From assembly GCA_016204995.1 (NCBI GenBank), contig JACQJR010000001.1:369132-433131 (forward strand): DNA of 64,000 bases, written 5' to 3'. Origin of the DNA: Candidatus Microgenomates bacterium. Lineage in GTDB: Bacteria > Patescibacteriota > Microgenomatia > UBA8517 > JACQJR01. Made by a program: the position numbers and the translations under genes. Below are positions 1 to 55,484 of this stretch, in pieces (the stretch's first letter is position 1; each line of letters starts with the position of its first letter). The notes beneath the pieces are model-generated. The model was not told where the DNA came from and did no database searches. It worked only from the letters and a program-made list of their open reading frames with translations.

Positions 1-46
1 CTTCAGTTTCTTTTTCTCACGCACCATTTTTGATGTCTTCGCCACC

Positions 47-592
47 TTATTTACCACCTTTCTCAAACGGCATGCCTAATTCTTCTAGTAATCTTTTAGC
101 TTGAGTCTCGCTTTTGGCACTAGTCACAATTGTAATACCTAAACCCCGGCCGCGACTAACTTTAGCTAAATCAATCTCCGGGAAAATAGTATGTTCAGTT
201 ATACCTAACGTGTAATTACCCGCTTTATCAAAAGAGGCGGTTTTGACTCCCCGAAAGTCCCGAATACGAGGAAGAACAATTTTAAAAAGTTTCTCCAAAA
301 ATGACCACATATATTTACCTCGCAAAGTTACCCGCAAACCAACTGGCTGACCTCGCCTAATACCAAAGCCGGAAATATCCCGGCTAGCCGGGCGAACTTG
401 CCCTTTTTGGCCGGTAATCGCTGCCAGCTCTGCTTGCACTTGCTCCAAGACACTTGCAGTTTTAGCAGCCTCGCCAATACCCATATCTAGGACTACCTTG
501 GTAATTTGCGGTACTGCCATCACACTTTTAACTCCTATTTCTTTTTGGAGCTTAGGCCGAATTTCATCTTTATATAATGTTTGTAAATTCAT
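47..592 (-). CDS. rplE: 50S ribosomal protein L5
   Basis: ORF translation MNLQTLYKDEIRPKLQ...; typical L5 length and position upstream of L24/L14 in spc-type order. Confidence 0.9.
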   Translation of the reverse strand: MNLQTLYKDEIRPKLQKEIGVKSVMAVPQITKVVLDMGIGEAAKTASVLEQVQAELAAITGQKGQVRPASRDISGFGIRRGQPVGLRVTLRGKYMWSFLEKLFKIVLPRIRDFRGVKTASFDKAGNYTLGITEHTIFPEIDLAKVSRGRGLGITIVTSAKSETQAKRLLEELGMPFEKGGK

Positions 593-594
593 AT

Positions 595-924
595 CTATTT
601 AGCTTTCTTTCTTTCTTCTATGCCTTTACCGCATTTTCTGCACATCCGTATCTTGCTACCATCTTTCAAAACTTGCGTGCCAATTCTGGTCGGTTTATGA
701 CAAGTCGGGCAAATAAGGGCGATATTAGAAACTGGAAGAGGCCGGGAAAATTCTATAATACCTCCTGGTTTACCGCCTGGCATACCTTTACGATGTCTTT
801 TATAGACATTAACGCCCGCGACTAAAAGACGGCTTCTGGTAGGAAAAATCTTCTCCACTGTTCCTTTTTGGCCCTTATCTTTACCAGCCATGACTAATAT
901 TTCATCTCCGACTTTGAATCTCAT
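595..924 (-). CDS. rplX: 50S ribosomal protein L24 with C-terminal CxxC...CxxC zinc-ribbon extension
   Basis: KOW-type N-terminus MRFKVGDEILVMAGKDKGQKGTV; C-terminus CPTCHKP...CRKCGK; located between L14 and L5. Confidence 0.85.
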   Translation of the reverse strand: MRFKVGDEILVMAGKDKGQKGTVEKIFPTRSRLLVAGVNVYKRHRKGMPGGKPGGIIEFSRPLPVSNIALICPTCHKPTRIGTQVLKDGSKIRMCRKCGKGIEERKKAK

Positions 925-1289
925 ATGACCTCCTTTGCCAGTGATACTATCTTAGCAAATCCTGCTTCACGTACTTCCCTGGCAATTGGACCGAAGATCC
1001 GGCTGCCGCGAGGTACACCCTGTTTATCAACTACCACTGCCGCATTCTCGTCAAAACGAACTGATGAACCATCTACCCGCTTCCTTTCTTTTTTGGTCCT
1101 GACAATAACTGCATCTACCAGTTCTTGATCCTTTACTATTCCGTTCGGATCAGCTCCCCGCACTACACATTTGATAACCATTCCTGAATAGGCAAAACGC
1201 TTTCTAGAATAGTGTGGAATACCTATTAATTTCAAAAGATGAGCTCCTGAATTATCAGCCGGTTTTAACATAGAAAGTAGCTGTACCAT
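921..1289 (-). CDS. rplN: 50S ribosomal protein L14
   Basis: MVQLLSMLKPADNSGA... matches L14 N-terminal signature; 122 aa. Confidence 0.9.
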   Translation of the reverse strand: MVQLLSMLKPADNSGAHLLKLIGIPHYSRKRFAYSGMVIKCVVRGADPNGIVKDQELVDAVIVRTKKERKRVDGSSVRFDENAAVVVDKQGVPRGSRIFGPIAREVREAGFAKIVSLAKEVI

Positions 1290-1290
1290 A

Positions 1291-1518
1291 TTATTTAATA
1301 ACCTCCATTATTTTCCAACTAATTGTGCGTGATATCGGCCTAGTTTGTACTAAAATTACCTTATTACCAATTTTGGCATCTATTAAATTTTGAGCGTGAT
1401 AGTTTTTTTGGCGGCGCAGACGCTTACCATATAAAGGATGGGTCACCCACCGCGAGACCTTTACCGTGGCAGCTTTTTCCATTTTATTACTAATTACTAC
1501 TCCTTGAACTTTCTTCAT
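1291..1518 (-). CDS. rpsQ: 30S ribosomal protein S17
   Basis: 75 aa; ...KTAVVKVSRWVTHPLYGK motif; between L29 and L14. Confidence 0.85.
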   Translation of the reverse strand: MKKVQGVVISNKMEKAATVKVSRWVTHPLYGKRLRRQKNYHAQNLIDAKIGNKVILVQTRPISRTISWKIMEVIK

Positions 1519-1727
1519 GATTTTTTGACCTCCAATTGTAAATTACGCAAGACCGTTAAAATCACCGCAATTTGCCGGCGCAAATTACGCCCAGCGTGCA
1601 CATTTTTAATCTTGCCAGTTTTAATATCCAGTTTAGTTTTAATAAACTCCTGTCTCTTTTTAGACAACAAGTCACCCAGTTCTTTAATTGATTTATTTTT
1701 TAATGCTAATAATTCTTGCTTTTTCAT
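1515..1727 (-). CDS. rpmC: 50S ribosomal protein L29
   Basis: 70 aa helical protein MKKQELLALKNKSIKELGDLL...; position between L16 and S17. Confidence 0.8.
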   Translation of the reverse strand: MKKQELLALKNKSIKELGDLLSKKRQEFIKTKLDIKTGKIKNVHAGRNLRRQIAVILTVLRNLQLEVKKS

Positions 1728-1752
1728 ATTTCTAAGATCTAATTTCTAATAT

Positions 1753-2220
1753 CTAAGATCTAACTACTATCTTGCAGGCCACTGGTAATTTGGCAGCTGC
1801 TAGCCTTAAAGCCTCATGAGCTATTTCGCTACTTACTCCCGCTACTTCAAATAACATCCGGCCAGGCTTAATTACTACGACATAACCGGTAATTTCACCT
1901 TTGCCTCCGCCCATCCGGACCCCGGCTGATTTTCCCGTAATTGGCTTATCAGGAAAAACCCTGGTCCAAATTTTACCACCCCGGCGCGTAGAATGAGCAA
2001 TTGCTCGTCTGGCGGCTTCAATTTGGGCGGCGCTGACCCAACCAACTGAAAGAGATTTCAAGCCATATTCACCAAAGGCGATATTTGCTCCTCTGGTAGC
2101 AATACCTTTCATACTTCCCCTAAATTGCTTGCGATATTTTTGTCTTTTTGGCTGTAACACAGCATCTGGAAGGACACCTACGGTTTCCCTCCAACTCCTT
2201 TCCCTTTTTTGTGAATCCAA
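1753..2220 (-). CDS. rplP: 50S ribosomal protein L16 (annotated start probably too far upstream; N-terminal ~20 aa overlap rpsC)
   Basis: ...LQPKRQKYRKQFRGSMKG...GANIAFGEYGLKSL matches L16; 43-nt overlap with S3 ORF suggests a later or non-ATG start. Confidence 0.88.
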   Translation of the reverse strand: MDSQKRERSWRETVGVLPDAVLQPKRQKYRKQFRGSMKGIATRGANIAFGEYGLKSLSVGWVSAAQIEAARRAIAHSTRRGGKIWTRVFPDKPITGKSAGVRMGGGKGEITGYVVVIKPGRMLFEVAGVSSEIAHEALRLAAAKLPVACKIVVRS

Positions 2221-2828
2221 ACTTTTATTCCGACATACCCTCTTTTTAAGAGAGCCGTAGCTTGGGCATAATCAATATCAGCCCGTAAAGTTTGAGTCGG
2301 CACCGACCCAGTGTGAAATTTAGCTTTACGAGCAATCTCTGATCCTTCAATCCGGCCGGCAAATAAAATTTTAATACCCGCCGCTCCAGCTGACATTACT
2401 CTTTCCATCGCCCGAGTGGCCACCCGCCGATGCGGCAAGCGTCGTTCCAGTTCAGTAGCAATTCTATTGGCAACCAGTCTGGCTGATAATTCCGGCTCCC
2501 TTACCTCTTCTATTGCTAAATCTAATTTCATAGGAATATCTGGCAAATCTTTACGGATAAATTCCCGTAGCTCTTCCACCCCTGTTCCGCCTCGGCCAAT
2601 TACCATACCAGGTCTGGTCACTAAAATTCTGATAGTCATGGCCTTGGGTAGCCGTTCAATAATGACGTTTGTAAGCCCAGCGTTTTTTAATTTTTCTGTT
2701 AGTATCTCTCTTAGCCTCAAATCTGCCAAAAGATATTGACTAAAAAGACGCTTATCCGCAAACCATTTCGCCTTCCAATCGGAAAACGTCCCTGTGCGAA
2801 ATGCGACTGGATTAACCTTTTGTCCCAT
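2178..2828 (-). CDS. rpsC: 30S ribosomal protein S3
   Basis: MGQKVNPVAFRTG... KH domain signature; 216 aa. Confidence 0.9.
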   Translation of the reverse strand: MGQKVNPVAFRTGTFSDWKAKWFADKRLFSQYLLADLRLREILTEKLKNAGLTNVIIERLPKAMTIRILVTRPGMVIGRGGTGVEELREFIRKDLPDIPMKLDLAIEEVREPELSARLVANRIATELERRLPHRRVATRAMERVMSAGAAGIKILFAGRIEGSEIARKAKFHTGSVPTQTLRADIDYAQATALLKRGYVGIKVWIHKKGKGVGGKP

Positions 2829-3183
2829 CTTTAACTCCTTTCACTTCTTCTTTAGTCTCAAGTACCACTCTAATATGGCTGGTTCTTTTCAAAATCGGCT
2901 TGACTCTGCCTGATGTACCAGCCCGAAATCTTTTAATTCTCGGCCCTTCGCCAATTTGGATCTCGCGAATTTCTAAACTATCTGGATTTATCCCTTTATT
3001 GTTTTTGGCATTGGCTATCGCCTGTTTGATAACTTTACTTAAAGGAGAAGCCGCCTTTTTATGCACAAATTCCAGTTGGGTAATTAAAAGAGCGGGGTTT
3101 TTGATCTTTTTAGCCAGGTAAGCCACATCCCGTAATTTTTGCGGGCTCATTCTAATATATTTTTGTTCAGCTTTTATAATCAT
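2812..3183 (-). CDS. rplV: 50S ribosomal protein L22
   Basis: 123 aa; position between S19 and S3; L22-like basic protein. Confidence 0.85.
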   Translation of the reverse strand: MIIKAEQKYIRMSPQKLRDVAYLAKKIKNPALLITQLEFVHKKAASPLSKVIKQAIANAKNNKGINPDSLEIREIQIGEGPRIKRFRAGTSGRVKPILKRTSHIRVVLETKEEVKGVKDGTKG

Positions 3184-3197
3184 AAAATCTAAGGTAT

Positions 3198-3227
3198 CTA
3201 GGCTGTTAGGCTCTTAGGCTATTAGGT
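3198..3227. repeat. short tandem repeat (TAGGCTNT)x4 in the rplV-rpsS spacer
   Basis: CTAGGCTGTTAGGCTCTTAGGCTATTAGGT. Confidence 0.6.
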
Positions 3228-3267
3228 AAAACCCAATACCCCAGTGGCCCAGGAACCCAATAGCCCT

Positions 3268-3552
3268 CTACGTTTTTTCTAATATTCTCTTAACAACTGC
3301 TCCGTGTCCACGAAACAGGCGAGTGGGAGCAAATTCTCCCAAGCGATGTCCCACCATGTCTTCGGTCACAAACACCTCTACAAAATTTTTACCAGTATGC
3401 ACCAAAAACCTCTGTCCCACAAAATCTGGCGAAATCTGACTCCACCTGGACCAGGTTTTAATAGGTGATTTCTGACCGCTCTCTTTTTGAGCCATCACCT
3501 TTTTGACTAACATTTCATCAATTGCTGGACCTTTTTTACTAGAACGACTCAT
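3268..3552 (-). CDS. rpsS: 30S ribosomal protein S19
   Basis: ...[18 protein letters not shown]-terminal S19 signature. Confidence 0.9.
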
Positions 3553-4295
3553 GATAACCTAGATCTTCTCCTTCCAATAATATACTTATCTGAATATTTA
3601 TGTCGTTTTCTGGTTTTAACTCCTCTGGCCGGCTTACCCCAAGGTGTTTTAGGCGGCATACCTTCACCCGATCTACCTTCTCCACCTCCGTGGGGATGGG
3701 CAGTCGGATACATGGCAACCCCTCTAACTGTCGGTCTAATTCCCATATGGCGGCTGCGGCCGGCCTTGCCAATTATTTCAGTTTTATGCTCCAGCCTGCT
3801 TACTTGACCAATGGTAGCAAAACAGCGACCATCAATTTTTCTGATTTCTCCTGATGGCAACTTGATAGTTATCATACTATCTTCTTTACCTTGCACTGTG
3901 GCTAAAGTACCTGCGCTCCTGACAATTTGACCACCTTTACCAAAAGTTAGCTCAATATTGTGGATATTGGTTCCAACTGGAATTTTAGACAGCGGCAAAG
4001 CATTACCCACCTTCAAAGAGGCATCTTTTGAAGCCATAATGGTTTGACCAACTGCCAAACCTGCGGGCGCTAAAATATAGCGTCTCTCGCCGTCGGTGTA
4101 AACCACTAACGCTACATCAGCAGTTCTATTTGGATCATATTCAATCGCCTCCACCCGACCAACAATATCTAGCTTATCGCGTTTAAAGTCAATTTCCCGC
4201 AAAAAGCGTTTATGTCTGCCACCCTGATGCCGGACCGAAATCCTACCATTAGAGCTGCGGCCAGAGTTTTTAGCTAAAATTCTTTTTAATTTCAT
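3549..4295 (-). CDS. rplB: 50S ribosomal protein L2
   Basis: 248 aa; ...[14 protein letters not shown]... L2 signature. Confidence 0.92.
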
Positions 4296-4609
4296 TTTTT
4301 AATCCTGCCCGTCTTTTTGGACTTTTTCTCGCTAGGGAATAAATCAATGGTCTGACCTTTTTTAAGGTAAACTATGGCCTTAACTCGATCTGATAATTTC
4401 TGAAAATTCCTACGATTTCGTACCCGTTTAGTCTTACCAGCGAGTTTTATAGTTCTTACTTTGACCACCTCTACTCCAAAAGTCTCTTCCACAGTTTGGC
4501 TAATCTGATGCTTGTTAGCCGCCCAATCTACTTCAAAAGTAAAGGCGTTTAGATTTTCAACAATTTTAGTTGATTTTTCCGTTAATATTGGTTTGATTAA
4601 AACGTTCAT
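4292..4609 (-). CDS. rplW: 50S ribosomal protein L23
   Basis: 105 aa; position between L4 and L2. Confidence 0.85.
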
Positions 4610-5265
4610 TTATTCTCCTTTTGACCCAAGAAAGTTTTTTTCAAAAGTTCTACCCCCGCTTCAGTGATAACCACTTTAGGATAGATAATTAGCTGATAAG
4701 CATTAATTTGGGAAGCTGGCATCAGTTCTACGCTTGCTATATTCCCCAAACCTCTCGCTAATTTTTCTTCGCCGCCATGCAAAACTAAAACTTTAGTTTT
4801 AGTTAAACCTAATTTATCTAACCATTTTTGCGCGGTTTTAGTTTTTCCCTCCAAGGCCGTTGCTTTAACCACTATTAAGTCTTTACTTGCCAGTTTTTCT
4901 GACAAGGCGACAGTTGTGGCTTGACGAGCCAGCCTCTTAGATAAACTCAACTGACGTTTTAGACCAGTTGGGCCATGAGCAATGCCGCCGCCGACAAAAA
5001 TAGGGGCTTTTTTCATGCCATGTCTGGCCCGGCCAGTTCCCTTTTGACGAAACATTTTAGCCGTGGTGCCAACTATTTCAGCTCTGGTTTTCACCTTATG
5101 GGTACCCTTGTGTTGTCTATCCTGATAAACATAGAAAGCCTGGGCCAGTAATTTATCATTTGGTTTCTGGCCAAATAACTCGTCAGGCAAAGACAATTTG
5201 GCAGCAGTTTTTCCTGTAGTTGGCCCCGATTTAATCGGGGTTGGTTGTATAATTATCTGTTTCAT
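4606..5265 (-). CDS. rplD: 50S ribosomal protein L4 (coding sequence contains a copy of the 17-bp palindrome CCCCGATTTAATCGGGG)
   Basis: 219 aa; L4-like; position between L3 and L23; palindrome at 5224-5240 encodes PIKSG near the N-terminus. Confidence 0.88.
   Translation of the reverse strand: MKQIIIQPTPIKSGPTTGKTAAKLSLPDELFGQKPNDKLLAQAFYVYQDRQHKGTHKVKTRAEIVGTTAKMFRQKGTGRARHGMKKAPIFVGGGIAHGPTGLKRQLSLSKRLARQATTVALSEKLASKDLIVVKATALEGKTKTAQKWLDKLGLTKTKVLVLHGGEEKLARGLGNIASVELMPASQINAYQLIIYPKVVITEAGVELLKKTFLGQKENK
5224..5240. repeat. 17-bp palindrome CCCCGATTTAATCGGGG, copy 1 of 4 (others at 6231-6247, 26712-26727 and 26921-26937 with 1-2 mismatches)
   Basis: a 13-bp core CCGATTTAATCGG would not be expected even once by chance in 64 kb; three copies lie within coding sequence and encode PIKSG or PLKSE. 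Confidence 0.8.
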
Positions 5266-5267
5266 AA

Positions 5268-6050
5268 TTACTCTTCTTTCTTTTCCTCCTTCGGCTCGCC
5301 GGAGTCTGCGGCGGAGGCGGCTTCAGCTTGTTCTGCTTCTACTTCTACTTCCATTGGCGGTAATTCCTCTGGTTTAATATCTTGGCCACGGACTACAAGG
5401 GGAGAAAAATCTTTAATTTGACCAATTTTGGTAATGGTCACCAAACTATCTTTATTGCCTGGTACCGGACCGGATAATAACACTTCACCGTTATCTTTCA
5501 CCGATAAGACTACCAAATTACGGATTGTGACGCGGTCGCTACCCATTCTACCAGCCATTCGCTTACCCTTATAAACCCGGCCAGGAGTGGTAGTTTGGCC
5601 GATGGATCCGGGGGCGCGTTCTCGATCTGATTGGCCGTGGGTGCGAGGACCACCGGCAAAATGATAGCGTCTGACCACACCGGCGAAGCCTTTACCTTTG
5701 GAAATACCAATTACTTTAACTAAATCACCAGGGCTAATCACATCCGAAGCTTTAACTTCATCTCCCACTTTTAAATCTTCGGCAGGCTGTTTGATTTCCC
5801 TTAAAAAGCGAGGAGCAACTTTTTCGCCTTTTGTTGCTCCTTTAAGATGCCCTAAAACTGCCTTTGAGATATTTTTAATTTTTCGCTCTCCTAAGCCTAA
5901 TTGAACTGCCTCATAACCATCTCTATCGTGAGCTTTAATTTGGGTAACCACCAGAGGACCAGCCTGAATTAAAGTAGTCGGGATCCGCCGACCATCTTCA
6001 CTCCAAGCCTGTGACATACCCTTTTTGATTCCTAAAATAGCATTAATCAT
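5268..6050 (-). CDS. rplC: 50S ribosomal protein L3 with acidic C-terminal tail
   Basis: MINAILGIKKGMSQAWSEDGRRIPTTLIQAG... L3 signature; C-terminus EVEAEQAEAASAADSGEPKEEKKEE. Confidence 0.9.
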   Translation of the reverse strand: MINAILGIKKGMSQAWSEDGRRIPTTLIQAGPLVVTQIKAHDRDGYEAVQLGLGERKIKNISKAVLGHLKGATKGEKVAPRFLREIKQPAEDLKVGDEVKASDVISPGDLVKVIGISKGKGFAGVVRRYHFAGGPRTHGQSDRERAPGSIGQTTTPGRVYKGKRMAGRMGSDRVTIRNLVVLSVKDNGEVLLSGPVPGNKDSLVTITKIGQIKDFSPLVVRGQDIKPEELPPMEVEVEAEQAEAASAADSGEPKEEKKEE

Positions 6051-6083
6051 ACTTGTTTGTTTTTCCTGTTAGGGAAAAGAGAT

Positions 6084-6108
6084 GGAGAAAAACCGTAGGT
6101 TTGTCTCC
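6084..6108 (-). promoter_or_regulatory. 10-bp-stem hairpin in the rplC leader
   Basis: GGAGAAAAAC-CGTAG-GTTTGTCTCC, 9 of 10 pairs, about 30 nt upstream of the rplC ATG. Confidence 0.35.
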
Positions 6109-6110
6109 AA

Positions 6111-6137
6111 GCACAAAAATGGGTGCTCGCCGCACCC
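6111..6137 (-). terminator. rho-independent terminator after the crp/fnr-family gene
   Basis: minus strand GGGTGCGGCGAGCACCC followed by ATTTTTGTG. Confidence 0.55.
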
Positions 6138-6252
6138 TAAATGTGGAGTGTCAGACCGAACACACTTTTCAGGAAGTAACGAACTCTTCCATTAACAATA
6201 AGTATATCAAAAAGAAGCTAATATGGCAAGCTCCGATTTAATCGGAGTAAGC

Positions 6253-6909
6253 TCAATATTCGCTCAAGGATTCTTTCGCCAGATCTGCCAGATTATTGAC
6301 TGCGGGCAGATGCTTCTGGAAAGAAATTAAACCTTTCTTTTCCAGCTTTGATAATTCAAGGCTGGTAGTTTCCCGAGTCACTCCTGCCAGACTGGCGATA
6401 TCTTGATGGGTGAGCGGCAACTGAATCACTACCTTATTGCCTTCTTTTTGCCCGAACTTTTCCGCGCAGATTAAAATCATGGAGGCAACTTTAGCGTAAG
6501 CATCTCCAAAGGCCAGATATTCCATTCGCCGCAGAGCAAATCTAAACCGATCATTAACTTGTTGACTGACTATTCTAAATACTGCTGTATTTTGATAAGC
6601 AAAGTCTATGAATTGTTTTTTATCCGCCCGTTTGAGTTCCACAGGCGTTAAAGCTTCGCTGTAATAAAGACTGGGCCCTCCCCCGGCCAAGACCAGAGCG
6701 GCCGGAAAGACATCACCTGCTTGGTAAATTAATAAGGTCAATTCTTTGCCTTCTGCGGAAAGTGAATAAAGCCTCACATAACCTTTTTCCAGTAAATAAA
6801 TACCGGCGGGGGGGTCGCCAGCGCGAAGAATGGTTTCTCCTTTTTTGTAGGTTATTTTTCTGAACTGGCTAAAAAAATTCTCTAGCGCGGAAGGGACTAT
6901 ATTACTCAC
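6253..6909 (-). CDS. Crp/Fnr-family transcriptional regulator (cNMP-binding domain plus C-terminal HTH)
   Basis: 218 aa; beta-roll-like region GETILRAGDPPAGIYLLEKGYVRLY and C-terminal HTH QDIASLAGVTRETTSLELSKLEKKGLI; inserted between rpsJ and rplC. Confidence 0.75.
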   Translation of the reverse strand: MSNIVPSALENFFSQFRKITYKKGETILRAGDPPAGIYLLEKGYVRLYSLSAEGKELTLLIYQAGDVFPAALVLAGGGPSLYYSEALTPVELKRADKKQFIDFAYQNTAVFRIVSQQVNDRFRFALRRMEYLAFGDAYAKVASMILICAEKFGQKEGNKVVIQLPLTHQDIASLAGVTRETTSLELSKLEKKGLISFQKHLPAVNNLADLAKESLSEY

Positions 6910-11075: not shown

Positions 11076-11558
11076 TTAAGGATTTTGGTTCTCTTTATCG
11101 TTTTCTTTGTTGCCCGTCTGTCTCACTTCATTTTCATTATATCCATGTTCTTTACCCCACTTAATCCAATCAGCCGCCATCGCTTTCAAACGCCCTCTAT
11201 GTTCTGGAAGAATAGGATCAACTCCAGTAATGGTGTATAAAGCCTCAAACCAGTGATCCGGCTTTTGCGCAAGTTTCTCTAAAATTAAAGGAACAATTGG
11301 CATTCCCATCTCAATAATTTGCTGGTAGGCTGGATGTTCCACCATCACGCTAATATCCATGTGATGTGGTCTTTCTCGCACCCAGAGATCAGCCAGTTGA
11401 TTAAATTTATCTCTAGTAGCCCTACCTTCAATTACCTCATCAGTAAATTTTGTCAAAGCCTGTCTATCTTCGTTTGATATGTATGGAATCCATAGGTATT
11501 GTTCAAGTTGACTTGCTCTTTCTTCACCATTGAAGTTTGAACCTTGTTCTTTTTTCAT
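11076..11558 (-). CDS. hypothetical protein inserted between rpsG and fusA
   Basis: 160 aa ORF with no recognisable family; host-like composition; own candidate promoter upstream and hairpin plus T-run downstream. Confidence 0.5.
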   Translation of the reverse strand: MKKEQGSNFNGEERASQLEQYLWIPYISNEDRQALTKFTDEVIEGRATRDKFNQLADLWVRERPHHMDISVMVEHPAYQQIIEMGMPIVPLILEKLAQKPDHWFEALYTITGVDPILPEHRGRLKAMAADWIKWGKEHGYNENEVRQTGNKENDKENQNP

Positions 11559-24819: not shown

Positions 24820-25505
24820 ATACTTGCCCCCGACTGCATCGGGGCTAACTCCGCTTTCACTATTAGCCGCCGCAAATAAGTTCCCGGCGGCACGCAGGTA
24901 ATTAAAGTCAGGTGGGGTTTATCGTTAGGTTGGGCCAGCACCGAGATTTCGGTCGGCGCCACCTCAAACATCTCTGAAATGACAAAACGATAAGTGATGC
25001 CATCATAGCTAACTATTATTTCATCTCCTTTCGCCAAAGTTGGCAGGGTAGAAAAAATAGATAAATAATTGGTAGGGCTAAAAAACTGCGGCAAAGTAGA
25101 ATGGCCAAAAATGACAGCATTACCCACTCGGCCTGGTATGGCCGTCCCCTTATAATGAATTAAATTTTTACTTAAGTCTTCGCCGGCAATTTCCACTGTC
25201 GCCTGGCTAATTTTTAATTTAGGAATTGATAAAGTATAGTATTTAATTTGAGAATTAGCTTCTGGCCGGTCGGGGAAATCCAAGCTGCCTACAAACCAAT
25301 TGGAAGCCCGAGTTAAATCTACGGGGCTATATTTTTGGCTATTGCTGTCTCCTACCGGAGATAAAAATTTAGAATCACTATCGCCCCGACTAAAGTTAGG
25401 GGCAGTAAACAATTCGTATGAAATAATAGGGAAAACGGCGCTGGTTAACACCAAGCCTCCCCCGATAATTAAAAAAATAGCCAATAACCGAAGCCAAAAC
25501 ATCAT
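24816..25505 (-). CDS. sortase-family transpeptidase
   Basis: 229 aa; N-terminal TM anchor; catalytic His (VIFGHS), TLITC cysteine motif, downstream Arg (RRLIV). Confidence 0.75.
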   Translation of the reverse strand: MMFWLRLLAIFLIIGGGLVLTSAVFPIISYELFTAPNFSRGDSDSKFLSPVGDSNSQKYSPVDLTRASNWFVGSLDFPDRPEANSQIKYYTLSIPKLKISQATVEIAGEDLSKNLIHYKGTAIPGRVGNAVIFGHSTLPQFFSPTNYLSIFSTLPTLAKGDEIIVSYDGITYRFVISEMFEVAPTEISVLAQPNDKPHLTLITCVPPGTYLRRLIVKAELAPMQSGASI

Positions 25506-27715
25506 TGTTCGGCAACCACCTTAATGGTAATGTTGTCGCTTTTTTGAGGCAGAAAATCGGACAGAAATGGCAAACGGGGAGAAAATTTAATGGAAGTACG
25601 AGAATAGCCTGGTAAAGCAGCCAGTTTTGTCTTAACCTCCGATTGGCTTTTACCAGCCAGTTGCGAAACCAGCTGTCTTTGATTAATCTGCGGCAGTAAA
25701 TTAGCTTGCGCTGTCACATTAATAGTCAGCACCTTATTTTTTTCTTTTTTCTCACCTGTCTGGCTAATGGAACTAAAACTAGCTGCTATATCACCCTCTT
25801 CTAAATTAAACTTCTCTGGCACTTTGGGACGCAAAACAGTTAATAGCTGGCTGTTTAACTGATCATGCGGTATGGTTACTGCTATTCCTTCCGCTTCTAG
25901 GTTTAACTTCAAGGTTTGTGCTTCCTCACCGACATTATGAGAAAATGAACGTCGCACAATGTTCATTTGGATTGATTCATTAATGACTGTTTCATCGCCA
26001 CTAACCTTCTGTCTAATATCTGTCTTAAATTTGTCGGTCAGTTCTGCCAACAGGTCTGTTTCCAGTTTTTGTCTATCTTCTTTGGCCACAGCCGGTACTT
26101 CTCGCGAGCTGCCGCCGGTAAAAACATTATCGTTTTTGGCAGCAAAACTATTGGTGGAAAAATTAGTGATCGCAAAACTATTGCCAGAGGCTAAATTGTA
26201 TTGGGTACCAATATCAGCCGCACTAATTACGGCTTTGGCTTGGCCTAGCACAATGTTGGGCAAAATGCCAGAGGCGGAGGCCACCGTCACCTGACTATCA
26301 AGACTGAACTTTAAACCGTTAGGACCAACTAAAATGGTATGAGCGGGAAAAGTTTTGGGCTGGGCGGTGTTATTGAAAATTATGACCTCTCCTTTGGCCC
26401 GATCTCCCACAGTTTTAGAACCGGTAGTGGAAGTAGTCTTTTCACCTTCCACGGTAGAAGAAATGGTCCGGCCGGCCACAATACCATCTCCGCTCCCACC
26501 AGTGGGATCAACCTGCAAAGTCAATTTTTCCTCAATTTTTTTAGGAGCAATATAAATAGTGAGCTGGGCCTTGGGTACAAAATACCACACTAAAGTAAAA
26601 ACTAAAATCGTTAATCCCCCTAAAATTAACCATATCTTCAACTTGCCTAAAAACCCACTTTTAGCAGAAACCGCATTAAAGAGGGAATTTAGTTTGGAAC
26701 CGGTCTCCGATCCTGATTTAATCGGGGCAGGCCCGCCTGCACCAACAGGCCTGTCTGCGCCAGCAGGCTCCACCACTTCCTCGTGGGTTTCCTGGAAACC
26801 GAAATCTTCTACTGGTGGTGTGACAGCAACTGGCAATTGCGGCTCTGGAGTCACTGAAGAAACCTTTTCCGTAGCAATTTCTTCCTCTACTACTGGTCTC
26901 CGGCCCTGGAAGGTCTCTGGCTCCGATTTAAGCGGGGCTGGTTCTGTCGCAGTGGTTAATTCCGGTTGAACCGGGGCTTCAGTGGAAGCAGCGACTGAAA
27001 TAGCGGATAATAACTCGTCCGATGTCAATCTTTCAATCCTGGGAGTATGCAGGAAAAAGGCCGAAGGCCATTCCCAGTTAACTAAATTTTGCCGTGCCTC
27101 CTCCAACTCGTTATTATTTCTGTTGTATAAAACTAACCGCGCAGGCAGTGATTCTCCGACGCCAAAACGGGATAAGCCCTCGGTAATATCATCTGCCAGC
27201 GATATACTGCGGCTGACCAGATGGGAATTAACAATTTTACCCGATCTAACCAATAACACTTCCGCTTCCTCTTCTTCAATACCAACTAAAATGGCCGAAA
27301 GGGGTGAGCCTTCTTTGTTTTTCAAAAAATGAATAATCGCTTCCGGTACTACCACAAAGCCTTTAGGTTTAAGTTCTAATTTTTCGCACAAGAGACGCAG
27401 GTGGGCCAGTTTTTCAGGAACAATATTACCATCTTCTATCCAGAAATTAGGCAAGCCAAAAACTACTGATAAAATTTCCTCCGGCGGCTCATTCATACTA
27501 CCTACTGCGGCTGATAAACTGTCATCAGCCGCCTGGACAAAAGATTCACTGTCCTGCCAAGCATCAGTCGTGCCGGCTGCCATTAATTCACCCTGACCGG
27601 ATAGAGTACGCCACAAACCGGCCTGAATCCAATTTTTACCAATCACAAAGGAAACAAATACTTCTTGCGGAGTTTCTTTTTTACCAATAATTTCCGTAAT
27701 GCTGGGCAATTTCAT
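25502..27715 (-). CDS. bitopic membrane protein: N-terminal cytoplasmic FtsA/PilM-like actin-fold domain, Pro-rich linker carrying repeat-element insertions, TM helix, large extracytoplasmic domain
   Basis: 737 aa; N-terminal region resembles PilM/FtsA subdomains (VFVSFVIGKNWIQAG..., AILVGIEEEEAEVLLVRSGKIV); TM KIWLILGGLTILVFTLVWYFV; the linker contains PAGADRPVGAG and PIKSG encoded by the palindromic elements. Confidence 0.5.
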   Translation of the reverse strand: MKLPSITEIIGKKETPQEVFVSFVIGKNWIQAGLWRTLSGQGELMAAGTTDAWQDSESFVQAADDSLSAAVGSMNEPPEEILSVVFGLPNFWIEDGNIVPEKLAHLRLLCEKLELKPKGFVVVPEAIIHFLKNKEGSPLSAILVGIEEEEAEVLLVRSGKIVNSHLVSRSISLADDITEGLSRFGVGESLPARLVLYNRNNNELEEARQNLVNWEWPSAFFLHTPRIERLTSDELLSAISVAASTEAPVQPELTTATEPAPLKSEPETFQGRRPVVEEEIATEKVSSVTPEPQLPVAVTPPVEDFGFQETHEEVVEPAGADRPVGAGGPAPIKSGSETGSKLNSLFNAVSAKSGFLGKLKIWLILGGLTILVFTLVWYFVPKAQLTIYIAPKKIEEKLTLQVDPTGGSGDGIVAGRTISSTVEGEKTTSTTGSKTVGDRAKGEVIIFNNTAQPKTFPAHTILVGPNGLKFSLDSQVTVASASGILPNIVLGQAKAVISAADIGTQYNLASGNSFAITNFSTNSFAAKNDNVFTGGSSREVPAVAKEDRQKLETDLLAELTDKFKTDIRQKVSGDETVINESIQMNIVRRSFSHNVGEEAQTLKLNLEAEGIAVTIPHDQLNSQLLTVLRPKVPEKFNLEEGDIAASFSSISQTGEKKEKNKVLTINVTAQANLLPQINQRQLVSQLAGKSQSEVKTKLAALPGYSRTSIKFSPRLPFLSDFLPQKSDNITIKVVAEQ
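26741..26781. repeat. degenerate copy of the 36-bp element in the linker of the 737-aa membrane protein gene
   Basis: GCAGGCCCGCCTGCACCAACAGGCCTGTCTGCGCCAGCAGGC shares TGTCTGCGCCAGCAGGC with the element; encodes EPAGADRPVGAG in the same relative frame. Confidence 0.6.
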
Positions 27716-27729
27716 TTTGGCGAGTATCT

Positions 27730-29076
27730 CTATTTTACACCTTGGCGGGAAACTTGTTGATGCCGACTAAATTCTTCGTTAAACTGTTGTCTATCAATTT
27801 TCTGACCTTTAACCGCAAATAATTCTTCCAAAACTTCTAAAGGAAAACCATAAGTTTGATAAAGATCAAAAGCAATCTTGCCGTCAATTTGAGCAATTTT
27901 TTCAATCTCTGCCAAACCTCTCTCTAAAGTTTTACCAAATTTATCCAGCTCTTGGCGAATAACATCAGCTATCTCATCTTTTTTAGAAATATCTAACATA
28001 TCGGTACCAGCGTATGTGTCAATAACACTACCACTGACTACTGCTAAATCTTGAGGTTTTTCCGTGGAACCGCAGATGCTATTAAATTTTACCGCCGCTC
28101 TTCTTAATAGTCTTCTTAAGACATAACCTTGCATTTTGTTGGAAGGTAGAATATCACTGGCAATAATAAAAGTAGCCGCTTTCATATGATCGGTAATGAT
28201 CTCAAATTGCTCTGATACAGCGATATCTTGGTAACTTCTTCCACTAATATTTTCTATTGCAGTAATAATTTTACTAAATAAGTCTGTCTCAAATATATCA
28301 GGGTTATCATTTGTTGCCGCTGTCATTCTCTCTAAACCGCCGCCAAAATCCACGTTTTTTTGGGTAAGTTCTTGTAAAGTTCCGTCCGCTTGCTTTTGAT
28401 ATTGGATAAAAACCGAGTTGCCGATTTCTACAAATCTGCCGCAATCGCAATTAGGATGACATTTATCTCCAAATCTTGGATCATGTTCCACTTGAGTAAA
28501 TTCATAAAATACTTCACTGTCCGGACCGCCGATTTCGCCGGCTGGCATTTGCTCCGGTGTGCCCGAACGAGACCACCAGTTTTTTTCTACGCCGTAGGCG
28601 AAAATATGATCCTCGGGGACGCCTAAACTTTTCCAGATTTCATAAGACTCATTATCTTTTGGTACTCCACTATTGCCACCTGTCCCGAGCGAAGCCGAGG
28701 GATCAAAAATACTGACATACAATTTTTCGTGAGATAGCTTTAACTCTTCTGTTAAAAATTGCCAAAACCAGGGAAGTTGTTCTTTTTTAAAATAATCTCC
28801 CAAAGACCAATTACCTAACATTTCAAAAAAAGTAGTATGGCGATTATCACCTACTTCTTCTATATCCTGTGCTCTAAAACATTTTTGGGAATTAACTAGT
28901 CTTTTTCCTTGCGGATGCGGCTTACCCAATAGATAGGGAACTAAAGGCTGCATGCCAGCACTGGTAAATAAAGTGGAAGGGTCATTTTCCGGAACAAGAG
29001 ATGCACTAGGGATTTCCTGATGCCCATATCTCACAAAAAATTCAATATATTTTCTCCGCACCTCTTCTGAAGTCAT
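27730..29076 (-). CDS. alaS: alanine--tRNA ligase, N-terminal catalytic/tRNA-recognition half only (448 aa; no editing or C-Ala domain)
   Basis: FTSAGM, FFEMLGNWSLGDYFK class-II AlaRS motifs; ORF ends after the tRNA-recognition region. Confidence 0.85.
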   Translation of the reverse strand: MTSEEVRRKYIEFFVRYGHQEIPSASLVPENDPSTLFTSAGMQPLVPYLLGKPHPQGKRLVNSQKCFRAQDIEEVGDNRHTTFFEMLGNWSLGDYFKKEQLPWFWQFLTEELKLSHEKLYVSIFDPSASLGTGGNSGVPKDNESYEIWKSLGVPEDHIFAYGVEKNWWSRSGTPEQMPAGEIGGPDSEVFYEFTQVEHDPRFGDKCHPNCDCGRFVEIGNSVFIQYQKQADGTLQELTQKNVDFGGGLERMTAATNDNPDIFETDLFSKIITAIENISGRSYQDIAVSEQFEIITDHMKAATFIIASDILPSNKMQGYVLRRLLRRAAVKFNSICGSTEKPQDLAVVSGSVIDTYAGTDMLDISKKDEIADVIRQELDKFGKTLERGLAEIEKIAQIDGKIAFDLYQTYGFPLEVLEELFAVKGQKIDRQQFNEEFSRHQQVSRQGVK

Positions 29077-29133
29077 GAAGATAGTATACTTGAGGCTACT
29101 CTTTAACTCAAGAGACGTATACCAGTATTATCA

Positions 29134-29550
29134 TTAATTAATACGCAATATACTATTTAATTCCGGTTGCAGATGGGGATTATTTTTCAGCTCACACCAC
29201 CATTTCAATTCACTACCTTGTGGTACGTAAACTTTTAATAAAGGGGTTATAGAAATTTTATAGTTTTTATCGAAATCTAAACCATAAGATTTAATAATAT
29301 TTTGCGCTTCCTCTTCACTAATAGATTTATATCCAACCAATAATACACCTTCTTGATATTGATGGCTTTTTCCAATCTCTTTTTGTTTTTGTTTTATACA
29401 TTGAGACAATTCATTAGGTATGGGAGAAGAAAATGGTTGAGAAGAAAAAAAGTTAATTTTTTGCGAAATAAGATAACCACCTATAACTAAAGCTACTACA
29501 ATAAATATTATTATTGGCACAAAGCCTTTTTGGGGAGAATTTACCGTCAT
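29134..29550 (-). CDS. membrane-anchored hypothetical protein with prepilin-like N-terminus (paralog of 30488-31102 at the N-terminus)
   Basis: 138 aa; MTVNSPQKG|FVPIIIFIVVALVIGG resembles a class III (G|F) signal; shared N-terminus with the neighbouring paralog. Confidence 0.45.
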   Translation of the reverse strand: MTVNSPQKGFVPIIIFIVVALVIGGYLISQKINFFSSQPFSSPIPNELSQCIKQKQKEIGKSHQYQEGVLLVGYKSISEEEAQNIIKSYGLDFDKNYKISITPLLKVYVPQGSELKWWCELKNNPHLQPELNSILRIN

Positions 29551-29806
29551 ACTTAACTATTAATTCCCCCCCCAACATGTCAAGTGCCAATCATGGAAAA
29601 TAATGATATAATGAATAACTATGACCAAGTCAACACGATTAACCAAGGCATATAGAAGGTACCGAAAAGAACGTGTTGGCACCAAAGTCGTGTTGGGATT
29701 TTTGCGCCTTTTTATGCCTGAAATGATTTTTAGAACCACCAGACTGGAAGGAGAAAAGGTCAGTCGCCGAACGGTTTCCTCTCTATTCAAATAATCTGGC
29801 GAGTTA

Positions 29807-30445
29807 ATGGCAAAAGCTACCACCAAACCAAAAGGGGCCACTTCTTATAAAGAAACTGCTTTTGGCATTATTCCCCATTCAAAACTTATCAAACTAGAAT
29901 TGGAAGGCATTAAAAGAGGACTGGAATATATTTATGGAATTATTCAGAGAAGAAAAGCTACTAACGTTACACCAAATTTAATCTGCAAGCTCCATCTAAT
30001 TTCCTTCGGTTGGATTTTCCCTACCTGGGCAGGAAAGTATAGAAAAATTCAAGTAACCTTTTCCGGAAAAGAAACACCATCTTATTATCAGTTACCAGAA
30101 CTCATTACAAATCTTTGCCAGGATTTAGAGGAACGATTAAAACATTTACCAGAACCCCTTAATGATGCTTTCATTATTGAAGTGGTAAAACTTTTAGCCT
30201 GGTTTCAACATCAATTTGTCTTCATTCATCCGTTTCAAGACTACAACGGCAGAACCGCCAGAATGTTAACAAGCTTCATCCTATTAAAACTTAATTTACC
30301 TCCAATTGAGCTTAAAGCAGAAACAGGTCTGGACAGAAAAAAATACCTCAAGGCTATGCAAAAAGCTGATGGGGGAAACTACTCGCTGCTTGAAACGCTT
30401 ATTAAGCGTGCTCTATCAGAATCATTAGAAAAAGTGAGGGGATAA
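29807..30445 (+). CDS. Fic/Doc-family protein (Fic motif variant HPFQDYNGRTAR)
   Basis: 212 aa; HPFxDxNGRxxR core matches the Fic HxFx(D/E)GNGRxxR motif with Gly to Tyr substitution. Confidence 0.75.
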   Translation: MAKATTKPKGATSYKETAFGIIPHSKLIKLELEGIKRGLEYIYGIIQRRKATNVTPNLICKLHLISFGWIFPTWAGKYRKIQVTFSGKETPSYYQLPELITNLCQDLEERLKHLPEPLNDAFIIEVVKLLAWFQHQFVFIHPFQDYNGRTARMLTSFILLKLNLPPIELKAETGLDRKKYLKAMQKADGGNYSLLETLIKRALSESLEKVRG

Positions 30446-30487
30446 TCTTCTTGTCATGGCGAGGAGCGAAGAGACGAAAGAATCTAA

Positions 30488-31102
30488 TTATTGAGTGAAT
30501 TTAAAGGTGGAGAGGATTTTAAATAGTTCATCTTCAATAGATTGATTTGGCCCTTCATATCTAAGGTAAAATATGAATTCATCGCCGTCCTTTTCAATCA
30601 TATTAGACATGAAGTCTTGGTGACCGTCATTAATACGGGCCATCTCATCTTCTGTGTTGTTTACCAACTTTTTATATTCTTCATCTGATATTTTGGTTAT
30701 TTTGTTAATTTTCAATTGATTATTTGATAATACTACCTTTATCTCTCCTGTAATGACATTAATACCATGGCCCCCCATGAATTTTTCTATAATTAATGTA
30801 GGCTTCTCGGGTATTCCTGCATTACTAATAACTACCATACTGCCCCCTCCTGTAGTATCCGCTAAGGAATAAGTTAAAGGATATTGAATTGAAAATTTAT
30901 ACCTTGAATTGGTATACGTTTTCCAGCTAGCAGTTTCATCTAAAGAGGTAGGAGAAGGTAAAACCGTGTTCATAGATTCGCGGGGAGTTAGAGTTATGGA
31001 TTGTTTACCCAGAAAGTATGCTCCGCCACCAATAGCTAAAATTACCACTATTATTAAAATTAGTATTGGAGTAAAACCGCCCTGTTTGGAGTTTACGACC
31101 AT
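30488..31102 (-). CDS. membrane-anchored hypothetical protein with prepilin-like N-terminus
   Basis: 204 aa; MVVNSKQGG|FTPILILIIVVILAIGG; the N-terminal 25 aa are paralogous to 29134-29550. Confidence 0.45.
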   Translation of the reverse strand: MVVNSKQGGFTPILILIIVVILAIGGGAYFLGKQSITLTPRESMNTVLPSPTSLDETASWKTYTNSRYKFSIQYPLTYSLADTTGGGSMVVISNAGIPEKPTLIIEKFMGGHGINVITGEIKVVLSNNQLKINKITKISDEEYKKLVNNTEDEMARINDGHQDFMSNMIEKDGDEFIFYLRYEGPNQSIEDELFKILSTFKFTQ

Positions 31103-31160
31103 ATTTAATTTTTAATCCCCCCCCAGCATGTCAATAGGCAAAAGGTGTATAATAAAATAT

Positions 31161-31376
31161 ATGCAAAAAGTTCATGCTGTTGTCTGGCAAGAAGATAGTT
31201 GGTGGGTAGCCAAAGCTCTGGAGGTAGAAGTGGCTAGTCAGGGCAAAAGCGAAAAATCAGCTCTGGCTAATTTAAAAGAAGCACTAGAGCTATATTTTGA
31301 AGATCAAACGAAAGTAGAATTAACTCCAGTTCACTCACCGAAACTTCAGGATATGGCTATTCAAACAAATGCCTAA
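31161..31376 (+). CDS. hicB: HicB-family antitoxin (UPF0150-like); the ORF track starts at 31128 but the internal Met MQKVHAVVWQ is the likelier start
   Basis: HAVVWQEDSWWVAKALEV...SEKSALANLKEALELYFED matches the HicB N-terminal domain; overlaps the downstream hicA by 8 nt. Confidence 0.65.
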   Translation: MQKVHAVVWQEDSWWVAKALEVEVASQGKSEKSALANLKEALELYFEDQTKVELTPVHSPKLQDMAIQTNA

Positions 31377-31593
31377 ACTTTACTCTGCTAGGGAAATCAT
31401 TAAAACACTAAATAGGGCAGGTTTTACTATTGTCAGCCAAAGAGGCAGTCATATTAAATTATTTAAAAGAGAAAGGGATAAATCTTTTACTGCTATTGTG
31501 CCCAATCACAAACAAGTTGCCATCGGTACTTTTAACAGCATCTTGAAACAAGCCGGCATGACCAGAGAAGAATTTGAAAAGTGGATTAGATAA
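31369..31593 (+). CDS. hicA: HicA-family mRNA interferase toxin
   Basis: 74 aa; ...REIIKTLNRAGFTIVSQRGSHIKLFK... YcfA/HicA signature with conserved GSH. Confidence 0.75.
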   Translation: MPKLYSAREIIKTLNRAGFTIVSQRGSHIKLFKRERDKSFTAIVPNHKQVAIGTFNSILKQAGMTREEFEKWIR

Positions 31594-31596
31594 AAA

Positions 31597-31962
31597 TTAA
31601 GCCAGGGGTTTACCTTGGCGGTGAAAGACCCGGCGGCCGCGTTCTTGCAGAGCCGTAATATGCTCCAAAGAATCTTTTTGGGTGTGAACTACCACGTCAT
31701 CAGTTTGATATTGGGCAGTACTAGTCACAGAATTTTCATATTCTGATGTAGAATTTTTACCGCTTTTTAAGACATGCTCTAATAACCCCCAGGCGGACAG
31801 AGTAGAAGTTTGGGCAGATTGCGAAATAGTATGGTTAATTTTTTTGACCGTGCCTCTGACATCTTTTAAGATAAAAATGACTTGTACTCCCACAAATACC
31901 AACAGGGCTGTTAAAATTAAGACCACCGCTCCCAATAATAATTGAACGCCAGCAATTTCCAT
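31597..31962 (-). CDS. small membrane protein, hypothetical
   Basis: 121 aa; single N-terminal TM. Confidence 0.4.
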   Translation of the reverse strand: MEIAGVQLLLGAVVLILTALLVFVGVQVIFILKDVRGTVKKINHTISQSAQTSTLSAWGLLEHVLKSGKNSTSEYENSVTSTAQYQTDDVVVHTQKDSLEHITALQERGRRVFHRQGKPLA

Positions 31963-54680: not shown

Positions 54681-55484
54681 TCAAAATAGCTTCAGAGAAA
54701 CGAGGACATGTTGGAAAGCATCGATCATGCTGCCGTCTTCAGCTAAATCGGTACTTGAGACGCCAGTAAGATTGGCCGTCAATACCAAGAACCTCCCTGT
54801 CCTTGGGAACGCCGCGTGGACGCTCTTTCCTAGAGCACCAGCTGTGAAGAAGTGTCCAGTTACGCCGCTGACCGTAACCTCTTTGCGGTTGGCAACGGTG
54901 GGATCATCTTCTGCAGGCAGTGTATACGAATCAGTCAACACAGCTTCAATGCATTTTGGGCCACCTGGTATCTGATCGCGCAAATTGGTAGTTGGAGGGC
55001 AAAGTCTAAAACCCTTCTGGTTCGGCTGCTCGATAGCAACCTTAATCCAGTCTTTGGGGTACTCAATCGAATATCCGCCTTGGTTGTCCGTAAAAGAAGT
55101 CCATGTTGGTTCTGTGAGCGGTTCGGACGGCAAGCTATAAGCGATGTAGCCGCCAGAGGGGTCTCTAAACATCAGGGAATTGGCCGTATCTCCCTGCTGC
55201 TCGACATCTTCTGTGGAAACAGGCTTCCACCGGGCAGACGGTACGGGAGAAGGACTTGATGATACTCTTTGTCCATGATTTTGGATCATCGTTCTATCGA
55301 CCGCTCGCCACCTAACATAGTCGACGGTACCAATAAGGAGAAGTATGCCAACGACTAGCAAAGGAAGAAACGTGGGAGAATGGGCTACGACGCCGAACAC
55401 CTTTCTCATGTGGCTTGTTGGTATGTTTTCCGAACTTTCATCGGGCTTTAGTAGGTTATTGAGGCTGTCATCGGGTGGTTCCAT
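54681..55484 (-). CDS. membrane-anchored hypothetical protein (inside the GC-rich insert)
   Basis: 267 aa; one TM near residue 40 to 60; higher-GC codon usage than the host. Confidence 0.4.
   Translation of the reverse strand: MEPPDDSLNNLLKPDESSENIPTSHMRKVFGVVAHSPTFLPLLVVGILLLIGTVDYVRWRAVDRTMIQNHGQRVSSSPSPVPSARWKPVSTEDVEQQGDTANSLMFRDPSGGYIAYSLPSEPLTEPTWTSFTDNQGGYSIEYPKDWIKVAIEQPNQKGFRLCPPTTNLRDQIPGGPKCIEAVLTDSYTLPAEDDPTVANRKEVTVSGVTGHFFTAGALGKSVHAAFPRTGRFLVLTANLTGVSSTDLAEDGSMIDAFQHVLVSLKLF

Follow-up and report, generated by a model that had tools for sequence, protein, structure and literature searches.

A toxin–antitoxin-rich accessory islet in a Microgenomates chromosome with two putative surface-protein genes that have a common 5′ module

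Introduction

In a 64,000-nucleotide stretch of the Candidatus Microgenomates bacterium contig JACQJR010000001.1 (positions 369,132 to 433,131, hereafter the window), two genes encode proteins that are unrelated over most of their length and nevertheless begin with almost the same residues. Each is preceded by a run of eight identical bases and lies back-to-back with genes of toxin type on the opposite strand. A sequence-only reading took the region for two paralogous divergent modules in which a prepilin-like membrane protein may be paired with an intracellular toxin through a duplicated promoter. The locus therefore raises the question of which genes the duplicated sequence serves, what the common N-terminus is, and whether its pairing with toxins goes beyond position on the chromosome.

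The explanation that we favor, with a probability of about 0.6, is that of an accessory islet rich in toxin–antitoxin (TA) operons that contains two surface-protein genes with a common 5′ module. The two genes would be monocistronic and would encode N-terminally anchored surface proteins, one subtilisin-prosegment-like and the other PsbP-like, both driven by a single genome-specific module. This module would consist of a σ70-type promoter with a G8 tract in its spacer and a transcription start at or beside the ATG, making the transcript leaderless, and would run on into an MxVNSxQxG leader and a K-G-F-[TA]-P-I-L-I-type hydrophobic anchor. It would have passed by copying or exchange from one gene to another that is otherwise unrelated. 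On the opposite strand, upstream of each surface-protein gene, a putative type II TA operon (FicA-Fic in one case, HicB-like/HicA in the other) would be transcribed from a promoter arranged back-to-back with that of the module.

Results

The two minus-strand reading frames at the center of the sequence-only reading are real, and we call their products P1 and P2. The second is identical to the NCBI protein HY404_02050 of Candidatus Microgenomates bacterium from groundwater. The genes and the sequence blocks directly upstream of them are as follows.

29134-29550, minus strand: P1, 138 residues, N-terminal membrane anchor and subtilisin-prosegment (I9)-like domain
29551-29583, minus strand: promoter block 1, with TTGACA at 29583-29578, a 16-nucleotide spacer containing G8 at 29573-29566, AATAGT at 29561-29556 and 5 nucleotides to the ATG
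30488-31102, minus strand: P2, 204 residues, N-terminal membrane anchor and PsbP/Mog1-like domain
31103-31134, minus strand: promoter block 2, with TTGACA at 31134-31129, a 15-nucleotide spacer containing G8 at 31124-31117, AAAAAT at 31113-31108 and 5 nucleotides to the ATG

The near identity of the two N-termini holds up: MTVNSPQKGFVPIIIFIVVALVIGG of P1 and MVVNSKQGGFTPILILIIVVILAIGG of P2 agree at 17 of the first 25 aligned residues and follow the common pattern MxVNSxQxGFxPI. P1 and P2 are also the sole open reading frames (ORFs) of the window with a G-F-x-P-[ILV] N-terminus. At the DNA level, identity over the first 25 codons is 65%, with different codons used for 9 of the 17 conserved residues, so the relationship is not recent.

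Immediately upstream, the similarity continues into the block TTGACATGYTG8(A)ATTAA..ATG. The spacer between the divergent genes had been described as nearly identical in the two copies, which is true of the 32–33 nucleotides at each minus-strand ATG (29551-29583 and 31103-31134; 28/33 identical, 17/18 over the 18-nucleotide core TTGACATGYTG8) and not of the remainder: the next 60 nucleotides match at 23 of 60 positions, that is, they are unrelated. The block lies 23 nucleotides from the plus-strand TATAAT at the first locus and 13 at the second. Because its distance to the ATG is fixed and that to the TATAAT is not, the block is in register with the membrane-protein genes and not with the toxin genes. 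The C-run motif thus belongs to the promoters of the membrane-protein genes and not to the toxin genes, and the supposed paralogy of two divergent modules shrinks to the approximately 110–130 bp that comprise this promoter and the signal anchor.

The G8 tract is positioned between TTGACA and a −10-like hexamer at both genes. Block 1 scores 10/12 in a consensus promoter scan, which omitted block 2 because of its 15-nucleotide spacer. A listing of the regions upstream of 63 genes puts these elements in context: many operon-first genes, among them alaS, ftsK, the sigma-factor gene and the genes at 11076, 34691, 20484, 52850 and 8793, carry a −10-like hexamer whose end lies 5–8 nucleotides ahead of the start codon, frequently preceded by TTGACA at a distance of about 17 nucleotides (TTGACA-~17-TAnnnT), and GGAGG-like sites are found chiefly before internal genes. 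This promoter layout points to leaderless transcription, apparently as the norm for operon-first genes of this organism, a feature that would bear on the calling of gene starts in such genomes. As the layout is typical of the genome, neither TTGACA nor the AT-rich stretch of the block is specific to it, and the TGYTG8 spacer is the distinctive shared part.

Within the window, this distinctive part is confined to the two genes. C8 or G8 runs occur only twice in the window (about 0.6 would be expected from its composition), each time directly upstream of P1 or P2, and a search of the window for further copies of the spacer motif, with the 17-mer TTGACATGYTGGGGGGG (TTGACATGYTG7) and up to three mismatches, returned these two sites alone. 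A profile search from the two 46-residue N-termini yielded 0 candidates, and the M-x-V-N-S-x-Q leader is present in none of the others among 154 relatives of P1 and P2. The absence of the leader from these relatives, together with the G8 spacer common to both genes, shows that the two 5′ regions are specifically related. An RNA element in the block, or in the intergenic 32-mer described below, was considered and rejected: the shared block matches no Rfam family, and neither sequence has a fold better than those of its shuffles.

Downstream of the anchor the two proteins differ. The AlphaFold2 model of P1, with a predicted local distance difference test (pLDDT) score of 89, comprises a transmembrane helix (residues 11–31), a linker and a β-α-β-β-α-β domain whose best match is the prosegment of subtilisin BPN′ (1spb_P, probability 1.0, TM-score 0.71), with furin-type prodomains also among the matches. 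This is in agreement with a marginal match to the Pfam family Fervidolysin_NPro-like (PF22148, 21.8 bits, cut-off 21). Cys51 and Cys119 are nearly invariant among the P1 relatives, of which the representative library contains 62, and the pair suggests that the domain is situated outside the cytoplasm. The model of P2 has a pLDDT of 66, and its best matches, CyanoP (2lnj), PsbP and Mog1, agree with a sub-threshold match to PsbP_2 (PF18933, 21.3 bits, cut-off 27) and with the PF18933 annotation of many of its relatives; the family is marked by the motifs WKTYTN and ILSTFKFTQ. Judged by these models, neither P1 nor P2 is a pilin, and both proteins would stay membrane-anchored outside the cell. 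A further, weakly PsbP-like protein encoded at 54681-55484 (PF01789, E = 4e-4) has a different N-terminus that lacks K-G-F.

The common N-terminus had been likened to a class III prepilin signal. In both proteins (MTVNSPQKG/F in P1, MVVNSKQGG/F in P2), a short charged leader ends in Gly and is followed by a hydrophobic residue at +1. Comparable N-termini, in which a short leader precedes [KR]-G-F-[TA]-P-I-L-I, were found in 53 of 91 P2 relatives, and 18 of 62 P1 relatives begin with a sequence of this type; K-G-F is the commonest form among the motif-bearing relatives. Since two unrelated families carry it, the K-G-F type is not private to this locus. Outside the window, no comparable G-[FY]-x-P N-terminus was detected in 1.4 Mb of related loci scanned, which implies that K-G-F genes are sparse in each genome and clustered where present. 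In another Patescibacteria genome (L178, 2806-6882), four consecutive genes of the G-F-[TA]-P-I-L-I type stand between the genes for ribosomal proteins S10 and L3.

If the likeness were functional, cleavage by prepilin peptidase would fall after Gly9, perhaps with methylation of the Phe, and non-pilin surface domains would make use of the type IV pilus machinery, as in some archaeal solute-binding proteins. The outline, M-x(1-8)-[KR]-G-F-[TA] and then a hydrophobic stretch of about 20 residues, does resemble type IVa pilin leaders such as MKAQKGFTLIE: Gly closes a short basic leader, +1 is Phe, +2 is either Thr or Ala, a long hydrophobic segment comes next, and the Gly and Phe are strongly conserved in two unrelated protein families. 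Furthermore, the window encodes PilN and PilO, and good conservation of type IV pili in Patescibacteria has been reported (PMC11623550).

Other hallmarks of the signal are missing, however. Position +5 is Ile or Leu in P1 and P2, Glu is found there in 0 of 71 motif-bearing relatives, and +3 is usually Pro among K-G-F-type N-termini. P1 and P2 match neither Pfam N_methyl at E values up to 0.1 nor the NCBIfam prepilin models at E values up to 1. In addition, the modeled helix is a 21-residue transmembrane segment joined to a linker, in place of a pilin α1 helix packed on its head domain, and the mature parts are non-pilin. Neither PilD nor a canonical GFTLIE pilin was found within the window, and a literature search on the motif strings returned no relevant paper. 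We therefore regard processing as a class III signal as unlikely, although it is compatible with the common 5′ module and the two could hold together. Directly upstream of pilN and pilO, the segment 56093-59950 contains an IS21-type pair (a truncated rve/Mu-transposase-like gene and IstB) and an AbiEii toxin gene, which may have displaced pilM.

The position of G8 exactly between −35 and −10 at both genes invites a second explanation, in which the tract acts as a slipped-strand switch: the addition or removal of G residues would alter the promoter spacing, turn both surface-protein genes on or off, and might also touch the overlapping divergent TA promoters. The controlled genes code for surface proteins, and the tract has been kept while its flanks diverged. 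Runs of at least 8 are rare, with 2 in the window and 15 in the 1.78 Mb of fetched loci, six of the latter being copies of these two sites; in Neisseria meningitidis, homopolymeric tracts of at least 8 are predominantly variable (PMC5084427). Set against this, the tract has the same length at both loci, and it reads C8 in every assembly that covers either of them, namely the Logan assemblies of SRR12113384 and SRR12113383 at the first locus and of SRR12113384, SRR12113383 and SRR12113430 at the second; the contig from SRR12113385 (L003) spans neither tract. No variation in length was thus seen among the assemblies covering each locus, which are consensus sequences and cannot reveal minority lengths. 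Moreover, no such tract is present in the promoters of relatives. A switch of this kind appears doubtful to us, more so than prepilin-type processing.

We next consider the genes on the opposite strand, which belong to two operons.

29584-29620, plus strand: ficA-fic promoter, GTGCCA-17-TGaTATAAT (TATAAT at 29607-29612), 8 nucleotides to the ATG, back-to-back with block 1
29621-29794, plus strand: FicA-like small protein, 57 residues, carrying TTRLEG
29807-30445, plus strand: Fic-domain protein, 212 residues, motif HPFQDYNGRTAR, of class I type and FicT-like
31146-31160, plus strand: hicB-hicA promoter, TG and TATAAT (31148-31153), 7 nucleotides to the ATG, its upstream part overlapping the −35 element of block 2
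31161-31376, plus strand: HicB-like candidate antitoxin, 71 residues (DUF7387), no DNA-binding domain
31369-31593, plus strand: HicA toxin, 74 residues (PF07927)

The toxin-type genes named by the sequence-only reading are present (Fic, PF02661; HicA, PF07927), but the gene that directly follows the first spacer is a 57-residue ORF and not fic. The Fic assignment itself is sound (54.4 bits, cut-off 24), as is that of a variant motif, for HPFQDYNGRTAR has Tyr where GNG has its first Gly. The active site keeps His, Phe, Asp, Asn, Gly and both Arg residues (R1 and R2), and does not fit the canonical adenylylation motif HxFx[D/E]GNGRxxR. We found 1270 relatives, in Microgenomates, Gottesmanbacteria, Levybacteria, Blackburnbacteria and other Patescibacteria; the best 120 are 66–77% identical and 196–227 residues long, and 117 of these 120 display HPFxDYNGRxxR. 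By sequence, FICD (E = 1e-13) and VbhT (E = 4e-5) are the nearest proteins of solved structure, and scores against NCBIfam are far under every equivalog cut-off.

The TTRLEG sequence of the 57-residue ORF fits the Fic inhibitory motif [S/T]xxxE[G/N] (PMC5033356). An ORF with T[TSF][RK]LEG lies directly upstream of Fic at 69 of the 72 loci with enough upstream sequence, and no inhibitory motif was found inside the eight Fic proteins checked. With the motif on a separate upstream small protein, the Fic protein is of class I type. The ficA-like ORF and fic are parted by a stop at spacings and in frames that vary between loci, which indicates a true two-gene arrangement. A single class II protein that is read through or pseudogenized was considered, as the two genes of the islet are in frame with one TAA between them, and was rejected because in relatives the stop differs in spacing and frame and the 1270 relatives are about 210 residues long. 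An alignment of the fused FicA and Fic sequences to FICD stopped short of the FicA part, so that a split class II Fic is at most a tentative reading.

The ficA-fic pair is best described as a putative TA module, a new variant of the class I FicTA type. It is similar to VbhA/VbhT and EcFicA/EcFicT in that the helix with [S/T]xxxE[G/N] is encoded by a small gene directly preceding a Fic gene of about 200 codons, in an operon with the antitoxin first. It differs from these modules in the HPFxDYNGRxxR motif, with its Tyr for the first Gly, and in a Fic core that is nearer in sequence to the class II protein FICD than to VbhT. The result is a large and highly conserved Patescibacteria Fic family that combines a separate inhibitory-helix gene with a Tyr-substituted active site.

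The second operon had been read as a HicB-HicA pair. HicA is clear (63.4 bits, cut-off 27), but its partner matches DUF7387 (PF24113, 41.4 bits, cut-off 27.9) and no named HicB model, and had no sequence match in the PDB. Its start is most likely at 31161, 7 nucleotides past the TATAAT; gene callers place it at 31128. The two genes overlap by 8 nucleotides, which supports an operon. The module thus resembles HicAB type II TA systems in its HicA_toxin domain and in its two overlapping genes with a small upstream partner, and differs from them in the DUF7387 partner without a DNA-binding domain. Its order, with the candidate antitoxin first, is also the reverse of that in E. coli HicAB, where hicA comes first.

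Both operons and both surface-protein genes are contained in a segment of about 2.5 kb that interrupts a conserved series of housekeeping genes.

27730-29076: alaS
29077-31596: the islet, between alaS and the block formed by a gene for a small transmembrane protein, a rodZ-like gene and ftsK
30453-30484: GC-rich 32-mer that separates the convergent fic and P2 genes, with one occurrence in the window
31597-31962: small transmembrane protein, followed by a rodZ-like HTH_25 gene and ftsK

With alaS as a synteny anchor, the order RNase J-FtsK-RodZ-like-small transmembrane protein-[slot]-alaS-p737-sortase-RuvX-YceG was found in 8 relatives of Microgenomates type. The slot is empty in two of them (L013 and L019), holds a MazE and PIN pair in a Woesebacteria genome (L015, 8329-9034), holds DUF5678 and a retropepsin-like aspartyl protease together with a P2-like fragment in a Daviesbacteria genome (L012, 8715-9322), and contains unrelated genes in three others (L014, L017 and L018). 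Because its content differs among the 8 syntenic relatives, the locus is a hot spot of variable content, and 29077-31596 is an islet of accessory genes that occupies this slot of the Microgenomates chromosome. It is similar to TA-rich genomic islets described elsewhere in that small TA operons occupy a variable slot between housekeeping genes and in that the same slot receives different TA pairs in different lineages; unlike those islets, the alaS slot showed no integrase, transposase or flanking repeats. Neither attC-like cores nor an integrase of the kind that would mark integron-like cassettes was seen on inspection by eye, which was not a formal test. The window has a G+C content of 43%, and its genes are almost all on the minus strand and of housekeeping type.

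The alternation of exported-protein genes and TA operons had suggested a cassette system, in which a secreted protein and a toxin module form one unit, co-regulated through a shared divergent promoter. In variants of this idea, TA autoregulation would gate the surface protein, or the TA operon would stabilize an array of surface-protein genes. The back-to-back, overlapping promoters are what such a unit would have, and the window contains two instances of the alternation, which returns in the related contig L108 (Ga0209542_10001796, 1-6630), which adjoins dnaK and not alaS and whose Fic is 74% identical to that of the islet. There, the order is a K-G-F gene (minus strand), FicA-Fic (plus), a PsbP_2-like K-G-F gene (minus), DUF433 and DUF5615 (plus) and a second PsbP_2-like K-G-F gene (minus). 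The DNA of the signal region is nearly identical in the three exported-protein genes, two of which have the promoter AAAATGCTATACTAAnnTTAATG in common, and none of the three has a G run. Taken with the window, this locus indicates that a portable, genome-specific promoter-plus-signal module recurs.

As a general system, however, the cassette is not supported. Among approximately 53 other non-redundant Fic contexts, in which the upstream neighbor is on the same strand in 33 and divergent in 20 and the neighbors are diverse, L108 is the only one with a divergent neighbor of the K-G-F type, and none of the three other contexts of PsbP_2-like genes (L176, L177 and L178), where K-G-F genes form arrays, has a TA neighbor. 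Furthermore, the TA type changes from site to site, the conserved block is in register with the exported genes only, and the repeats, in which identical runs do not exceed 9 nucleotides, are too diverged for efficient recombination now. We consider a functional cassette quite improbable and infer that the pairing is positional and does not constitute a new secretion–toxin system, although the overlapping back-to-back promoters may bring some regulatory coupling. Given that the genes are nearly all on one strand, two-gene modules on the opposite strand fit only at operon boundaries, and these lie just upstream of monocistronic genes, which places TA operons there.

Pure convergence, in which the 5′ likeness would arise only from a consensus −35 element, an AT-rich −10 region and a common signal type, draws on the facts that these promoter elements are generic in the window and that K-G-F N-termini are frequent in relatives, but it was already disfavored and is extremely improbable, since the window and the 154 relatives contain no further instance of the shared TGYTG8 spacer or of the M-x-VNS-x-Q leader.

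Discussion

Several observations weigh against the reading of the locus as an islet in which two surface-protein genes simply have a common promoter and leader. First, copies of the module were counted within the 64-kb window of a contig of 609,565 bp. Second, the exact pattern TTGACATGNTG7N{0,2}ATTAA had 0 matches in genome_contigs and 0 in metagenome_contigs, a result of little weight as the source genome is in neither. Third, conservation is higher in the G8-containing 18-mer than in the codons next to it, which suggests some function beyond that of a plain promoter. Finally, exported genes and TA operons alternate again in L108, where the second TA pair is a different one, and this could mean more than position.

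A common 5′ module on otherwise different surface proteins has precedents in the Borrelia Erp/UHB loci and the vlp genes of Mycoplasma hyorhinis, surface-protein families in which unrelated or divergent mature proteins are preceded by a conserved promoter and signal-peptide region. For vlp, expression is governed by a homopolymeric tract within the spacer of the promoter. The islet differs from both in having two known copies and membrane anchors in place of lipoproteins, and from vlp in that its tract is G8 and not poly(A), with no length variation seen in assemblies.

For the most part, the islet is ordinary: a variable slot that contains two TA operons and the genes for two exported proteins. 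What sets it apart is the portable promoter-plus-signal module common to unrelated genes, which recurs in at least two genomes, and the presence of a pilin-leader-like N-terminus on unrelated surface proteins, of which the literature search found no description. If prepilin peptidase processes K-G-F N-termini, the prediction of surface proteomes for uncultured symbionts would change. The most far-reaching version of the model, in which Patescibacteria route unrelated surface domains through prepilin peptidase by means of M-x(1-8)-K-G-F-[TA]-P-I-L-I and do so from a G8-switched leaderless promoter that overlaps TA promoters, has in our view little chance of being correct; if true, it would equip an ultra-small episymbiont with a portable 5′ module for the phase-variable display of surface proteins.

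Additional observations

Two features of the assemblies concern the islet. Logan contigs from three runs all end at 30490-30519, inside the codons for the C-terminal motif ILSTFKFTQ of the P2 family, which suggests paralogs or strain variants with common k-mers. An apparent divergence of the L003 contig at 30857 was traced to a Nextera adapter tail and is not a real sequence difference. The 32-mer at 30453-30484 gave no significant fold, that is, none better than its shuffles.

The genes on the alaS side of the slot have features of their own. The alaS product is only 448 residues long and consists of the catalytic domain (PF01411, positions 1–432 of 552); Patescibacteria relatives likewise match residues 1–448 only, and the next gene begins 15 nucleotides past the alaS stop. 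The 737-residue protein encoded at 25502-27715, which has one central transmembrane segment and no Pfam match, lies between alaS and the sortase gene in 8 of 8 syntenic relatives.

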